The position numbers are program-made. Positions 15,001 to 21,000 of a DNA stretch of 64,000 nucleotides are shown here, piece by piece. Location of the stretch: assembly GCF_058153355.1 (NCBI RefSeq), contig NZ_CM177019.1. One strand, written 5' to 3'. Each line of letters starts with the position of its first letter. Within the stretch, counting starts at the first letter, position 1.

Positions 15001-18000
15001 TTAATTTCAATCATTTAGTTATTTGGCATTGTGAATTTACCTAGCTCAACAGAAAGCAATGTCAACGCGTTATGGACTATTATTTCTCTTTTTTTAGCCA
15101 AATCTGCTATCTCTTTATGTGACTCACTTCACTTACATCATCTTATTTCTCTTCGTAAAATTACTTTGGAATTAAGTACAATAAGAAGAGGAACATTTAT
15201 GAAGTCTGCATTGAAGAAAAGTGTCGTAAGTACCTCGATATCTTTGATACTGGCATCTGGTATGGCTGCATTTACCGCTCATGCGGCAGATGATGTAAAG
15301 CTGAAAGCAACTAAAACAAACGTTGCTTTCTCAGACTTTACGCCGATTGAATACAGTACTAAAGGAAAGCCAAATATCATCGTACTGACCATGGATGATC
15401 TGGGTTATGGACAACTTCCTTTTGATAAGGGTTCTTTTGACCCAAAAACAATGGAAAATCGTGAAGTTGTCGATACCTACAAAATAGGGATAGATAAAGC
15501 CATTGAAGCTGCACAAAAATCAACGCCAACACTCCTTTCGTTAATGGATGAAGGTGTACGTTTTACTAACGGCTATGTGGCGCACGGGGTTTCCGGTCCC
15601 TCCCGCGCCGCAATAATGACCGGTCGAGCGCCCGCTCGTTTTGGTGTGTACTCCAATACTGATGCTCAGGATGGTATTCCGCTGACAGAAACTTTCTTGC
15701 CTGAATTATTCCAGAATCATGGTTATTACACTGCAGCAGTAGGTAAATGGCACTTGTCAAAAATCAGTAATGTGCCAGTACCAGAAGATAAACAAACGCG
15801 TGACTATCATGACAACTTCACCACATTTTCTGCGGAAGAATGGCAACCTCAAAACCGTGGTTTTGATTACTTTATGGGATTCCACGCTGCAGGAACGGCA
15901 TATTATAACTCCCCTTCTCTGTTCAAAAATCGTGAGCGCGTCCCCTCAAAAGGTTATATCAGCGATCAGTTAACCGATGAGGCAATTGGCGTTGTTGATC
16001 GTGCTAAAACACTTGACCAGCCTTTTATGCTTTACCTGGCTTATAATGCTCCGCACCTGCCAAACGACAACCCTGCACCAGAGCAATATCAGAAGCAATT
16101 TAATACCGGTAGCCAAACAGCAGATAACTACTACGCTTCCGTTTATTCTGTTGATCAGGGCGTAAAACGCATTCTTGAACAACTAAAGAAAAACGGACAG
16201 TATGACAATACAATAATTCTATTTACCTCCGACAATGGTGCAGTTATCGATGGTCCTCTGCCGCTGAACGGAGCGCAAAAAGGCTATAAGAGCCAGACTT
16301 ATCCTGGCGGTACTCATACACCAATGTTTATGTGGTGGAAAGGAAAACTTCAGCCCGGTAATTATGACAAGCTGATTTCCGCAATGGATTTCTACCCGAC
16401 AGCTCTTGATGCAGCCGATATCAGCATTCCAAAAGAGCTAAAATTGGATGGTGTTTCATTGCTGCCCTGGTTGCAAGATAAGAAACAAGGTGAGCCACAT
16501 AAAAATCTGACATGGATAACATCTTATTCTCACTGGTTTGATGAGGAAAATATTCCATTCTGGGATAATTACCACAAATTTGTCCGCCATCAGTCAGACG
16601 ATTACCCGCATAACCCCAACACCGAGGACTTAAGCCAATTCTCTTATACGGTGAGAAATAACGATTATTCGCTTGTCTATACAGTAGAAAATAATCAGTT
16701 AGGTCTATACAAACTGACGGATCTACAGCAAAAAGATAACCTTGCCGCCGCCAATCCGCAGGTCGTTAAAGAGATGCAAGGCGTGGTAAGAGAGTTTATC
16801 GACAACAGCCAGCCACCGCTTAGCGAGGTAAATCAGGAGAAGTTTAACAATATCAAGAAAGCACTAAGCGAAGCGAAATAACTAAACCTTCATGCGGCGG
16901 ATTTTTCCGCCGCCTTATTGAGCGAGATAGCGATGCACGTTACAGCCAAGCCCTCCAGTTTTCAATGTAATCTCAAATGTGATTACTGTTTTTACCTTGA
17001 AAAAGAGTCGCAGTTTACTCATGAAAAATGGATGGATGACAGCACTCTGAAAGAGTTCATCAAACAATATATCGCAGCGTCTGGCAATCAGGTCTATTTT
17101 ACCTGGCAAGGCGGTGAACCCACTCTGGCTGGCCTGGATTTTTTCCGTAAAGTTATTCACTATCAACAACGCTATGCAGGCCAAAAACGTATTTTTAATG
17201 CATTACAAACGAATGGCATTTTATTGAATAATGAATGGTGTGCCTTTCTCAAAGAACATGAGTTTCTGGTTGGTATCTCGATCGATGGACCCCAGGAGCT
17301 ACATGACCATTACAGACGCAGTAATTCAGGTAACGGTACTTTTGCAAAAGTGATAGCAGCCATCGAGCGTCTGAAATCATATCAAGTAGAGTTTAATACG
17401 TTAACCGTCATTAATAACGTTAATGTCCATTACCCTCTTGAGGTTTATCATTTTTTAAAATCTATCGGCAGTAAACATATGCAATTTATCGAATTGCTCG
17501 AAACCGGGACGCCGAATATTGATTTCAGTGGTCATAGTGAGAACACATTCCGTATCATTGATTTTTCTGTGCCTCCTACGGCTTATGGCAAGTTTATGTC
17601 AACCATTTTTATGCAATGGGTTAAAAACGATGTGGGTGAAATTTTCATCCGTCAGTTTGAAAGCTTTGTCAGCCGTTTTTTGGGGAATGGGCATACCAGC
17701 TGTATTTTCCAGGAGTCCTGCAAGGATAATCTGGTTGTTGAAAGTAATGGAGACATTTACGAATGCGACCATTTTGTCTATCCACAGTACAAAATTGGAA
17801 ACATTAATAAATCTGAACTCAAAACGATGAATAGTGTTCAACTGACAGCGCAAAAAAAACGGATTTCAGCGAAATGTCAGCAATGTGCATATAAACCTAT
17901 CTGCAATGGTGGTTGCCCTAAACATCGTATTACTAAAGTAAACAATGAAACTGTTTCCTATTTTTGCGAAGGTTATAAAATCCTTTTTTCAACCATGGTG

Positions 18001-21000
18001 CCTTATATGAACGCCATGGTGGAGTTAGCTAAGAACAGAGTTCCGCTTTACCACATTATGGATGTTGCAAAACAAATGGAGAATAATAAATAACGCACTC
18101 TATTAGCTTCAGTCTTAGCCTCCTTCTTATGAACTTAACAAGGCACCCGACATAACTTCCTGTCGGGTGTTTCGTCATCATCATCTTCCCGTGCGAAAAT
18201 CCTGGCTTACGAGGTATGCGTCAGGGCATTAGCAATACTCTTGATTATCAATAGCATAACCATAACCACTGAAAATGAAATATTTCTTTATATTTCATAT
18301 TATTAAATGATACTTAAATAAATTTCATCAGTATATCATTGCCATAGATAATCATTGGATGGCACAATCAATTTTCGCTAATGATAACCATTCCCATTAC
18401 GTTTTGTATGTTGATAGCAAAGTATCTCTGTCTGCTGAAGCCCTTTTGGCTGCGTAAGAATAATAAAACTTCAGTGTTGTTAATCATTATTATCCTCGCC
18501 ATGATCCTTGGCGTGGTTAAAATTCAGGTCTGGTTAAACGACTGGAATAATGATTTTTTCAATGCGCTAAGCCAGAAAGAAACTGATAAGCTTTGGCAGC
18601 TTGTCCTTTGGTTCCCTGCCCTGCTGGGGATCTTTGTATTAATATCCGTAAACAAAACATGGTTAATTAAACTACTGACTATTCGCTGGCGCGAATGGTT
18701 AACAGATTACTACCTTAATCGCTGGTTTGCAGATAAAAACTACTATTTCACGCAGATCTACGGCGAGCATAAAAATACAGATAACCCTGACCAACGTATC
18801 GCTGAAGACATTCTCTTACTGATCAGCAAAACGCTCAGCCTTTCATTTGGCTTCATCCAGTCACTTAGCATGCTGATCACCTTTACCGTTATTCTTTGGC
18901 AAAGCGCGGGTACGCTCTCATTCACTGTTGGTGGAACTGAATGGAGTATCCAGGGGTATATGGTCTATACCGTCGTGCTCATTGTGATCGGTGGAACTTT
19001 ATTTACCCATAAGGTTGGTAAACGTATTCGTCCGCTTAATGTGGAAAAACAACGTAGCGAAGCGACATTTCGAACTAATCTTGTGCAGCATAATAAGCAG
19101 GCAGAACTGATTGCGCTAAGCAATGCTGAGTCTCTACAACGCCAGGAGTTGAGCGAAAATTTTCATACCATTAAAGAGAACTGGCATCGTTTAATGAATC
19201 GTCAGCGGTGGCTTGATTACTGGCAGAATATTTATTCGCGCTCGCTTAGCGTTCTTCCCTACTTTCTGTTATTGCCGCAGTTTATTAGCGGACAGATCAA
19301 TCTGGGCGGACTGATGAAATCACGCCAGGCATTTATGCTGGTATCGAACAATTTAAGCTGGTTTATTTATAAATATGATGAACTTGCTGAACTGGCTGCG
19401 GTTATCGATCGCTTGTATGAGTTCCATCAACTCACCGAACAGCGCCCTACGAATAAGCCTAAAAATTGCCAACATGCGGTACAAGTGGCTGACGCGAGTA
19501 TTCGTACTCCTGATAATAAGATCATATTAGAGAACCTGAACTTTCATGTTTCGCCAGGCAAATGGCTATTACTGAAAGGTTACTCTGGTGCGGGAAAAAC
19601 CACACTGCTTAAAACATTATCCCACTGCTGGCCGTGGTTTAAAGGTGATATTTCTTCTCCTGCTGACAGTTGGTATGTGTCACAAACACCGTTAATCAAA
19701 ACCGGCTTACTGAAAGAGATTATTTGTAAAGCACTTCCCCTGTCCGTAGACGATAAATCGTTGAGCGAAGTACTGCATCAGGTTGGTCTGGGGAAATTGG
19801 CTGCGCGTATTCATGATCACGATCGCTGGGGAGATATTCTTTCCAGCGGCGAAAAACAACGTATCGCCCTGGCTCGATTAATTTTACGACGTCCGAAATG
19901 GATATTTCTTGACGAAACTACCTCTCATCTTGAGGAACAAGAGGCAATCCGCTTACTGCGTTTAGTGCGAGAACAACTCCCCACAAGCGGCGTCATTATG
20001 GTTACACATCAACCCGGTGTCTGGAACCTGGTCGATGATATTTGTGACATTAGCGCGGTTATATAAAAACAATAAAAGCCCTGCTGTACGGAGATATAAA
20101 TAAATGAAGCGAGTTCTTATTCCTGGCGTCATTTTATGTGGCGCTGATGTAGCGCAGGCCGTCGATGACAAAAATATGTACATGCATGTTTTTGAAGAGA
20201 TGACGGTCTATGCTCCTGTCCCTGTACCCGTAAACGGCAACACGCATTACACCAGTGAAAGCATCGAGCGTTTACCGACCGGGAATGGCAATATCAGCGA
20301 TCTGCTGAGAACCAACCCTGCGGTACGCATGGATTCAACGCAAAGTACCTCATTGAACCAGGGAGATATTCGCCCGGAGAAAATCTCTATTCACGGTGCG
20401 TCGCCCTACCAGAATGCCTATTTGATTGACGGTATTAGTGCAACGAATAACCTGAACCCAGCGAATGAGTCCGATGCCAGTAGTGCAACCAATATTAGCG
20501 GGATGTCACAGGGGTATTATCTTGATGTCAGCTTACTGGACAATGTGACGCTTTATGACAGTTTTGTGCCGGTTGAATTTGGCCGCTTCAATGGCGGGGT
20601 AATTGATGCAAAGATCAAACGCTTCAACGCTGATGATAGTAGCGTGAAACTGGGTTATCGTACTACGCGGTCGGACTGGTTAACATCGCATCTCGATGAG
20701 AATAACAAAAGCGCATTTAATCAAGGTTCTTCAGGAAGTACTTATTACTCTCCAGATTTTAAAAAGAACTTTTATACCTTGTCGTTTAATCAGGAACTCG
20801 CTGATAACTTTGGCGTTACCGCCGGTTTATCGCGCCGCCAGTCTGATATCATCCGCGCGGATTATGTTTCGAATGACGGCATTGTCGCCGGCAGGGCACA
20901 GTATAAAAACGTTATCGATACTGCATTGAGCAAATTTACCTGGTTTGCCAGCGACCGCTTTACCCACGATTTAACCTTAAAATATACCGGCTCCAGCCGT

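Follow-up and report, generated by a model that had tools for sequence, protein, structure and literature searches.

A conserved intercistronic RNA hairpin in the ydeN–ydeM sulfatase–maturase operon of Escherichia

Introduction

Attenuating terminators and stabilising hairpins located inside operons give rise to differential expression of adjacent genes in the rpsU–dnaG–rpoD, malEFG, pap, and puf operons. The ydeN–ydeM operon described here shares with this type a G+C stem-loop situated between cistrons, an excess of upstream over downstream mRNA, and a structure maintained by covariation, but its U tract is imperfect and the element travels with a mobile cassette across genera. In kind, the element is an ordinary one.

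In Klebsiella the atsB gene lies upstream of atsA, whereas in ydeN–ydeM the sulfatase gene comes first and the maturase gene second. The AtsA/AtsB system of Klebsiella pneumoniae and that of anSMEcpe from Clostridium perfringens (PDB 4K36-4K39) are characterised Ser/Cys-type maturation systems, which resemble the Escherichia pair in that the maturase is a radical-SAM/SPASM protein bearing three [4Fe-4S] cluster motifs and the sulfatase is a periplasmic one of the Ser type with the S-x-P-x-R motif; the identity of YdeM to anSMEcpe is moderate. The active-site motifs of YdeN are identical to those of SulfAtlas subfamily S1_19 (iota/kappa-carrageenan galactose-4-O-sulfatases; PDB 6B0J, 6BIA, 9HH2), from which YdeN differs by Ser instead of Cys at the formylglycine (FGly) position, an insert of ca. 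27 additional residues following the DD motif, and an extended C-terminal domain.

The pair itself is already known, being annotated in K-12 as ydeN (b1498) and ydeM (b1497) and discussed in the literature with regard to repression by AraC and GadX and to co-transcription. In K-12, the DNA upstream of ydeN is bound by AraC when arabinose is present (PMC3738151), GadX represses ydeN (PMC4918353), and ydeNM is treated as a single transcription unit (PMC10878103; PMC9962212). YdeN is listed as periplasmic in a ribosome-profiling paper (PMC10746267), and a host or mucin glycan has been speculated to be its substrate (PMC10878103).

Results and Discussion

The ydeN–ydeM locus and orthologous cassettes

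The window, i.e., the whole stretch of 64,000 nucleotides that was analysed (NCBI RefSeq assembly GCF_058153355.1, contig NZ_CM177019.1), represents a diverged Escherichia lineage, and the 3.6 kb considered here shows ca. 95% DNA identity to most E. coli genomes (98.8% to the best one). The initial annotation correctly placed the ydeN–ydeM pair at 15199–18093. The region corresponds to the operon already annotated in Escherichia and constitutes a two-gene cassette that is horizontally mobile. The gene order ydeP–safA–ydeO–ydeN–ydeM–yddA–yddB is as in K-12 (ydeP–safA–ydeO upstream, yneP/yddA/yddB downstream), and so are the lengths of the two genes, except that ydeM is one codon longer in the window. 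Their products are 98.9% (YdeN) and 99.5% (YdeM) identical to those of K-12 and the 51-nt ydeN–ydeM junction is identical. The pair was also described as AT-rich and adjacent to acid-resistance genes, and both points hold: the G+C content is 43.3% in ydeN and 38.6% in ydeM against 47.6% in the window, and ydeP, safA, and ydeO lie directly upstream.

The order of the sulfatase gene followed by the anaerobic sulfatase-maturating enzyme (anSME) gene is kept in all of the ca. 26 orthologous loci examined, which span Enterobacterales, Aeromonas, Vibrionaceae, Iodobacter, Anaerobiospirillum, and Fusobacterium. The flanks of the cassette differ locus by locus, often with IS elements, an integrase or a Rep3 replicon nearby. 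YdeN retains 54–84% identity in distant hosts, indicating purifying selection.

The sulfatase YdeN and the maturase YdeM

ydeN (15199–16881, plus strand; ATG at 15199, stop at 16881) codes for a 560-aa precursor of a Ser-type formylglycine-dependent sulfatase of the S1 family. YdeN matches the full Pfam profile PF00884 (Sulfatase) with residues 58–408 (1.4e-70, 238.5 bits with a cut-off of 25), and the RefSeq label of the gene is "sulfatase-like hydrolase/transferase"; RefSeq labels ydeN and ydeM in this way in >5,300 E. coli genomes. The signal peptide claimed earlier is indeed predicted: residues 1–29 (15199–15285, plus strand), MKSALKKSVVSTSISLILASGMAAFTAHA preceding ADD, have the features of a Sec-type peptide, with a K-rich basic n-region, a hydrophobic core, and a cleavage site after AHA and before A, as judged by reading the sequence and by hydropathy. 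No twin-arginine RR motif was seen in this peptide.

The C/S-x-P-x-R target motif, on which the initial annotation made the sulfatase assignment depend, is present in the Ser form S132-G-P134-S-R136 (15592–15606, plus strand; regular expression and signature matches). It lies within GVSGPSRAAIMTG, which fits the sulfatase signature, is the sole (C/S)-x-(P/A)-x-R motif in YdeN, and lines up with SGPSR/CGPSR of PDB 9hh2/9hh3, at the catalytic C/S of solved S1_19 sulfatases. YdeN contains no cysteine. The proposed sulfatase active-site region is likewise borne out by metal-binding and catalytic residues kept with respect to S1_19 structures, namely D66-D67 of the DD motif, K183/H185 (GKWHL), H286 (YNAPHLP), D345-N346 (SDNG), and K361/K364. 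The closest solved relatives of YdeN are S1_19 carrageenan sulfatases (1e-51 to 3e-50, residues 109–436); the top five matches in the PDB are S1_19 or carrageenan sulfatases and the next subfamilies reach at most 1e-42 in strength in this similarity search.

ydeM (16933–18093, plus strand; ATG at 16933) codes for a 386-aa anSME with radical SAM and SPASM domains. The mechanically derived reading frame begins with TTG at 16918; all orthologues begin at ATG with MH(V/I/F)T. YdeM scores 505.4 bits against TIGR03942 (cut-off 349.45), with residues 2–364 covering positions 1–362 of the 363-position profile, Pfam detects Radical_SAM and SPASM (the latter at 3.5e-6), and the RefSeq label is "anaerobic sulfatase maturase". 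The alignment with anSMEcpe (PDB 4K36, 5e-63) spans both proteins end to end. The CxxxCxxC motif and extra Cys clusters noticed earlier correspond to the radical-SAM cluster motif C12-NLK-C16-DY-C19 (16966–16989, plus strand) and to all the auxiliary cysteines of 4K36. These SPASM cysteines (17701–17967, plus strand) are arranged as C257-x5-C263-x14-C278 and C315-x2-C318-x5-C324-x3-C328, plus C345; their counterparts in anSMEcpe are C255/C261/C276, C317/C320/C326/C330, and C348, with identical spacing. The Asp following C278 is conserved between the two proteins, and the SAM-binding GGE motif is present as G60-G61-E62.

The identities of the two genes and their pairing are nearly certain. Judging from family membership, YdeN, a Ser-type S1 sulfatase, would be synthesised as a precursor exported by the Sec route, and YdeM, a cytoplasmic radical-SAM anSME that carries a SAM-binding [4Fe-4S] cluster and two auxiliary ones, would oxidise Ser132 to C-alpha-formylglycine before export. 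Formylglycine would be the catalytic residue, and the periplasmic sulfatase would be inactive unless Ser132 is converted.

Regulation and transcript levels

The ydeO–ydeN intergenic region (14799–15198, plus strand), comprising the ydeN promoter and regulatory DNA, was aligned with that of K-12, E. albertii, and others. It has 83 differences in 400 nt relative to K-12. The last ca. 130 nt and the AAGAGGAA Shine–Dalgarno sequence are conserved; the distal half, strongly diverged from K-12, is hypervariable among Escherichia lineages.

Deletion of araC in K-12 colonising mice raised the RNA-seq counts of ydeN from 92 to 5399 and those of ydeM from 21.7 to 371.5, i.e., ca. 17-fold (PMC10878103 Table S3), so the two genes are co-regulated. 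From the same data we computed a length-normalised ydeN:ydeM mRNA ratio of ca. 10:1 for the derepressed operon and of 2.9:1 under repression of the ydeN promoter.

The intercistronic hairpin

The initial annotation pointed to a GC hairpin between the ydeN stop and the ydeM start at 16894–16914. The hairpin is there, with its end one base off: the stem-loop GCGGCGGA-UUUU-UCCGCCGC occupies 16894–16913 (plus strand), 12 nt 3' of the ydeN stop and 19 nt 5' of the ydeM ATG. It folds into an 8-bp stem of about -16 kcal/mol and is unique within the window. The single-sequence fold provides modest evidence only (z = -2.5; 1 of 200 shuffles as stable), and a consensus terminator scan did not call the junction hairpin.

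The hairpin is real and conserved across genera. The junctions of 14 orthologous two-gene cassettes from >10 genera keep the same 8 bp, with double compensatory changes at seven of the eight pairs, a degree of compensation reached by none of 500 shuffles. In the alignment 94.6% of cells are paired, compared with 33–80% in slid controls, which have at most two compensated pairs, and RNAalifold run on the orthologous junctions independently gives the same helix. The inner seven pairs include six G-U cells and one A-C cell, an excess indicating that the helix forms in the sense RNA rather than in DNA or the antisense strand. Of 17 proteobacterial junctions, 16 have a stem energy between -11 and -18 kcal/mol. 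An Rfam search found no family at gathering score, the sole match being isrK on the opposite strand (20 bits vs 50, E = 0.26).

An imperfect U-rich tail, CUUAUUGAG (16914–16922, plus strand), directly follows the stem. In E. coli it has four U in eight nt, under the threshold of the terminator scan. Among the orthologues, the mean number of U is 4.4 in the 8 nt following the helix vs 2.4 in the 8 nt preceding it; tail positions 1 and 2 are U in 11–13 of the 14, and at least five U in eight occur in half of them (7/14). The tail is not U-rich in the Salmonella 564-aa allele, Aeromonas, and Y. pestis; the stem is kept regardless.

Further downstream, outside the hairpin pairing, the sequence reads as a weak Shine–Dalgarno-like GAG (16924–16926, plus strand), 6 nt 5' of the ydeM ATG, and the orthologues have GAG, AGG or GGA at the matching site. 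The distance from the hairpin to the maturase ATG is 12–22 nt, whereas that from the ydeN stop to the hairpin ranges from 7 to 93 nt, which suggests a tie to the 5' end of ydeM or to its ribosome-binding site.

Role of the hairpin

We favour, with a probability of about 0.55, the reading in which the hairpin is a leaky intrinsic terminator/3' stabiliser setting the sulfatase:maturase ratio. In the sense mRNA it would act as a leaky terminator and as a barrier to 3'-exonucleases for the ydeN segment, so that the majority of transcripts from the AraC/GadX-repressed ydeN promoter would end, or be stabilised, after ydeN, and a minority would run on into ydeM. The sulfatase, a substrate, would then be plentiful and the catalytic maturase scarce, by a factor of ca. 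10. The modulation of read-through suggested by the initial annotation gains indirect support from the covariation, the U-rich tail, and the ca. 10-fold lower level of ydeM mRNA; a 3' end at the ydeN–ydeM junction is listed neither in the Term-seq data of Adams et al. 2021 nor in the TERMITe supplementary tables, but the operon is nearly silent under the conditions used and this absence is weak evidence. As a whole, a sulfatase–maturase operon with a leaky-terminator/stabiliser hairpin is the best explanation of the locus and a likely one.

A possible, though clearly less probable, alternative is that the hairpin does not terminate transcription and serves in mRNA processing or stability, either as a barrier to 3'-exonucleases on ydeN once RNase E has cut the AU-rich tail, or as a 5' stem-loop guarding and insulating the ydeM ribosome-binding site after upstream cleavage. 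Retention of the stem without a U-rich tail in locus L028, Aeromonas, and Y. pestis accords better with such a role in stability or insulation than with termination. The near-constant distance to the ATG, kept even in spacers of 104–125 nt (Grimontia, GCA_029258115), and the Shine–Dalgarno sequence lying always unpaired just 3' of the structure point the same way. Differential decay would also explain the 10:1 mRNA ratio as well as termination does; the 10-fold drop could equally be due to faster decay or to Rho action inside ydeM. Against this stand the U-rich tail placed right after the stem in most orthologues, which is a terminator signature (UU in 11–13/14), and the resemblance of several orthologues to canonical terminators (U6 in Grimontia and Y. 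enterocolitica, U5 in Leminorella).

The preferred reading of a leaky terminator also has to be set against full termination of a monocistronic ydeN, with ydeM transcribed from its own promoter within the 3' end of ydeN. The 2.9:1 ratio under repression would be compatible with an internal promoter of weak, constitutive activity, but ydeM is derepressed ca. 17-fold alongside ydeN upon araC deletion, a scan of the last 200 nt of ydeN gave no strong promoter-like site, the 19-nt gap between the stem and the ATG is too short for a promoter past the hairpin, and published work regards ydeNM as a single transcription unit (PMC10878103; PMC9962212), all of which makes this arrangement improbable. 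Still less credit is due to the view that the hairpin has no role in RNA and is either a palindrome arisen by chance or an operator acting in the DNA, which is in fact largely refuted and the least probable of all. The z value of just -2.5 would suit it, and the hairpin is invariant in E. coli, but so is the surrounding stretch of 456 nt, making within-species identity uninformative; moreover, seven of the eight pairs covary, the G-U wobble works in the sense RNA alone, and a protein operator would keep sequence, not pairing. Another doubt concerns the proteins: the Escherichia pair may be cryptic or mismatched, with YdeM being, e.g., a peptide-acting SPASM enzyme rather than the maturase of YdeN, or YdeN being a non-functional sulfatase. 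Both genes have a high A+T content and are repressed under laboratory conditions, our literature search found no activity reported for either protein, including sulfatase activity and FGly formation, and sulfatase maturation in E. coli is described as "still not completely understood", with a third system suspected (PMC8379841). YdeM does score on RiPP maturase models such as DynA, yet below the cut-offs (218 bits vs 450 for DynA), whereas that of the anSME equivalog is exceeded by a wide margin. That this sulfatase and this anSME remain strictly syntenic in different phyla favours a functional pair, and with all catalytic and cluster residues intact and YdeN evidently under purifying selection in distant hosts, we consider a cryptic pair quite unlikely.

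The downstream end of the operon

A candidate operon-end terminator, the stem-loop CACCCGACA-N8-UGUCGGGUG followed by UUUCGUC, is located at 18144–18169 (plus strand), 50 nt past the ydeM stop. Its fold has z = -4.5, and none of 200 shuffles is as stable. In K-12 a region of Rho-dependent termination has also been mapped; it lies 41 nt 5' of the ydeM stop, equivalent to ca. 18052 in the window.

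Gene organization and host lineage

The sulfatase gene ydeN (ATG 15199 to TAA 16881, plus strand, 560 aa) and ydeM (ATG 16933 to TAA 18093, plus strand, 386 aa), coding for an anaerobic sulfatase-maturating enzyme (anSME), are separated by a 51-nt spacer, as read from the ORF list and the raw sequence. The two form an annotated operon already known from the literature; the sole addition made here, small but concrete, is that the hairpin at their junction covaries and is conserved as a component of a two-gene cassette that moves horizontally. Elements of this sort, attenuators or stabilisers within operons, are familiar, and the addition brings no new kind of biology. 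The 3.6-kb region is present in 5,374 of 5,426 complete E. coli genomes (megablast), and in the matching genomes ydeN is annotated as 'sulfatase-like hydrolase/transferase' and ydeM as 'anaerobic sulfatase maturase'. In the annotations of MC1061, MG1655, and the best-matching strain the gene order is likewise ydeP-safA-ydeO-ydeN-ydeM-(yneP antisense)-yddA-yddB, and thus the coordinates, the gene names, and the adjacency to acid-resistance genes put forward in the initial annotation are correct. TTG 16918, considered as the ydeM start, was dropped in favour of ATG 16933, which is kept as MH(V/I/F)T in all orthologues. The pair, described earlier as AT-rich by eye, indeed has a G+C content of 43.3% (ydeN) and 38.6% (ydeM) against 47.6% in the window, with 31-36% in the flanking intergenic regions.

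The ydeNM region is ~95% identical to that of most E. coli and 98.8% identical to its best match among complete E. coli genomes, and the narZ-narU region of the window has a best match of 98.5% in the same set. For these two regions tested, no complete E. coli genome lies above ~98.5-98.8% identity; the closest sequences are those of 'Escherichia sp. MOD1-EC7003' and strain 24A16CRGN010, and the window probably derives from a divergent or cryptic Escherichia lineage. Divergence from K-12 falls from 4-5% in ydeN to about 1% over the junction and most of ydeM (window ~16600-17800), a block that looks like a recombination mosaic, probably with a breakpoint near the ydeN 3' end. The junction, 100% identical to K-12 across 121 nt, lies inside a 456-nt run of this block without differences to K-12 (16805-17262), so its conservation within E. 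coli says nothing for or against the hairpin.

The sulfatase and its maturase

The Pfam Sulfatase profile matches YdeN over its entire length (1.4e-70). A formylglycine motif, on which the initial annotation had made its reading of YdeN depend, is present: the sole (C/S)-x-(P/A)-x-R motif is S132-G-P-S-R136, within GVSGPSRAAIMTG, and it aligns exactly with SGPSR/CGPSR of the solved S1_19 sulfatases 9hh2/9hh3. Further active-site motifs, D66-D67, GKWHL, YNAPHLP, and SDNG, are kept. YdeN has no cysteine at all and is therefore a Ser-type sulfatase; the pair is the only system of this type in E. coli. The signal peptide proposed for YdeN is predicted to be of the Sec type, since sequence reading and hydropathy point to MKSALKKSVVSTSISLILASGMAAFTAHA|ADD at the N-terminus, where a twin arginine is absent. 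The best solved relatives are S1_19 carrageenan (galactose-4-sulfate) sulfatases (1e-51 to 3e-50), a likeness that gives no more than a hint of the substrate.

YdeM scores 505 bits against the NCBIfam anaerobic sulfatase maturase equivalog (cut-off 349); against the models for related RiPP maturases it stays well under the cut-offs. Its alignment with the crystallised Clostridium perfringens enzyme, anSMEcpe (PDB 4K36; 5e-63), runs from end to end. The CxxxCxxC motif and the extra cysteine clusters ascribed to it from the sequence were all found, namely the radical-SAM motif C12-x3-C16-x2-C19 and the auxiliary-cluster cysteines C257/C263/C278, C315/C318/C324/C328, and C345, the latter spaced as in anSMEcpe; the GGE motif and the Asp following C278 are present as well. 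By analogy with the two families, YdeM would convert Ser132 of its unfolded substrate pre-YdeN to formylglycine in the cytoplasm, and Sec would then export YdeN to give a periplasmic sulfatase.

Distribution of the cassette

The proteins show a patchy spread, comprising Leminorella, Citrobacter, Salmonella, Yersinia, Proteus, Mixta, Cedecea, Aeromonas, Iodobacter, Grimontia, Psychromonas, Anaerobiospirillum, and Fusobacterium, with YdeN identities of 54% to 84%. From genus to genus the pair has different flanking genes, often with IS elements, an integrase, or a Rep3 replicon close by, from which it follows that the pair is a mobile two-gene cassette. The order sulfatase to maturase is held in all loci examined, and it is unlikely that the two genes are mismatched or cryptic. 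Some E. coli carry a second YdeN homologue (565 aa, 77% identity) beside a porin gene (comparison locus L022, 3001-5024, GCA_014543985.1); it is followed by a 12-bp hairpin and then, in place of an anSME gene, by an 85-aa ORF of unknown function, soon after which the contig ends.

The junction hairpin

The stem-loop GCGGCGGA-UUUU-UCCGCCGC (16894-16913, plus strand, about -16 kcal/mol) begins 12 nt past the ydeN stop and ends 19 nt ahead of the ydeM ATG. Taken alone it is only modestly unusual (fold z = -2.5), and owing to a tail, CUUAUUGAG, with 4 U in 8 it is not called by a consensus terminator scan. There is a single copy of the element in the window. No Rfam family matches the junction; a chance-level isrK match is found on the minus strand only.

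A stem-loop is present in the spacer of every proteobacterial orthologue, and the stem sequences differ. Fourteen orthologous junctions were aligned with MAFFT, and RNAalifold independently predicted from this alignment a single 8-bp helix. Pair counting gave 94.6% of cells paired, with double compensatory changes in seven of the eight pairs (21 cells). The observed pairing and covariation values were reached by none of 500 shuffles, and slid controls had 33-80% of cells paired and at most two pairs with double compensatory changes; that the hairpin is a chance palindrome is unlikely. In the inner pairs, G-U cells outnumber A-C cells by six to one, which points to the sense RNA as the form in which the structure is read. 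The mean U content is 4.4 in the 8 nt after the helix versus 2.4 in the 8 nt before it, with U at each of the first two positions in 11-13 of the 14 junctions. Sixteen of the 17 proteobacterial junctions place the stem 12-22 nt ahead of the ATG, and the interval from stop to stem spans 7 to 93 nt. In the three Fusobacterium orthologues the spacer is short, contains GGAGG, and lacks the hairpin.

In a search of 238 kb, the covariance model built from the 14 junctions recovers its own training junctions only. Those of Grimontia, Psychromonas, GCA_029258115, and Anaerobiospirillum form analogous hairpins without detectable homology to it. In the Yersinia pestis spacer (locus L019, 4672-4728) two mutually exclusive hairpins sharing GGCGGC can be drawn, GCCGCC-AAA-GGCGGC or GGCGGCAAG-N7-CUUGCCGUC, a possible alternative-structure arrangement seen in no other orthologue.

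Expression of the pair and the role of the hairpin

ydeN and ydeM are handled as one transcription unit, ydeNM (PMC10878103; PMC9962212). With arabinose, AraC binds upstream of ydeN (PMC3738151), and GadX represses ydeN (PMC4918353). At pH 4.4 ydeN mRNA and ribosome occupancy drop about 32-fold or more (PMC10746267), ydeN is the sole gene induced by an azo dye (PMC10653809), and YdeN peptides were detected in O157 grown anaerobically in rumen fluid (PMC3936929). Sulfatase maturation in E. coli has been described as incompletely understood (PMC8379841). The distal half of the ydeO-ydeN intergenic region (14799-15198) is hypervariable, with 83 differences in 400 nt, and indels, relative to K-12, so the sites described in K-12 for AraC and GadX may be different in the window lineage; conservation of the ~130 nt next to the ydeN ATG extends even to E. 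albertii. Just past the ydeO stop lies a G+C hairpin, GGGGCAGC-UAUUA-CCUGCCCC (14846-14866), which the terminator scan calls on the minus strand only (tail TTTAATTCTT); there is no U tract behind it on the plus strand.

In K-12 colonising mice, deletion of araC raises ydeN from 92.3 to 5399.1 counts and ydeM from 21.7 to 371.5 (PMC10878103 Table S3). Since the pair is so strongly derepressed in gut-adapted araC mutants, it may help E. coli in the gut to exploit sulfated glycans of the host. The joint derepression of both genes argues that transcription passes through the junction; a separate promoter for ydeM is unlikely. The length-normalised ydeN:ydeM mRNA ratio, computed from the same table, is 10:1 in the derepressed and 2.9:1 in the repressed state, and the covarying hairpin would readily explain why maturase mRNA is roughly 10-fold lower. 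We infer, with a probability of about 0.55, that the hairpin acts as a leaky intrinsic terminator and/or a 3' stabiliser, by which the maturase would be kept sub-stoichiometric. The main rival, a purely stability or RBS-insulating element, draws on the constant spacing between stem and ydeM start and on stems retained without U tracts; we regard it as possible, at distinctly lower odds. No 3' end at the junction is listed in the Term-seq tables of Adams 2021 or TERMITe, from cultures in which the operon is nearly silent, and the ribosome-profiling paper supplements hold no rows for ydeN or ydeM.

Translation-coupled antitermination, in which the ribosome at the ydeN stop would mask the stem, is unsupported, as the stop-to-stem distance is so variable and is at most 10 nt in four orthologues only. 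It is doubtful, and less probable than either a leaky terminator or an insulating element, that the hairpin is a conditional switch borne by the mobile cassette and more than a passive leaky terminator. Read-through into the maturase gene, and with it the making of active sulfatase, would then depend on translation status, on anaerobiosis, on an RNA or protein acting in trans, or on another such signal. If true, this would account for a stem kept beside the maturase RBS in more than 10 genera, even with the U tract decayed. Stem mutations provide a simple handle for anyone seeking active YdeN.

A strong stem-loop (18144-18169, plus strand, fold z = -4.5) follows ydeM. Adams et al. 2021 (eLife, supplementary file 2) mapped a Rho-dependent termination region 41 nt ahead of the ydeM stop (MG1655 1579674, minus strand; window ~18052), so that Rho acts at the operon 3' end besides this stem-loop. 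The small ORF yneP (K-12 b4747) is present antisense at window ~18056-18184 on the minus strand; it overlaps ydeM by the final ~35 nt, and the stem-loop after ydeM falls within it.
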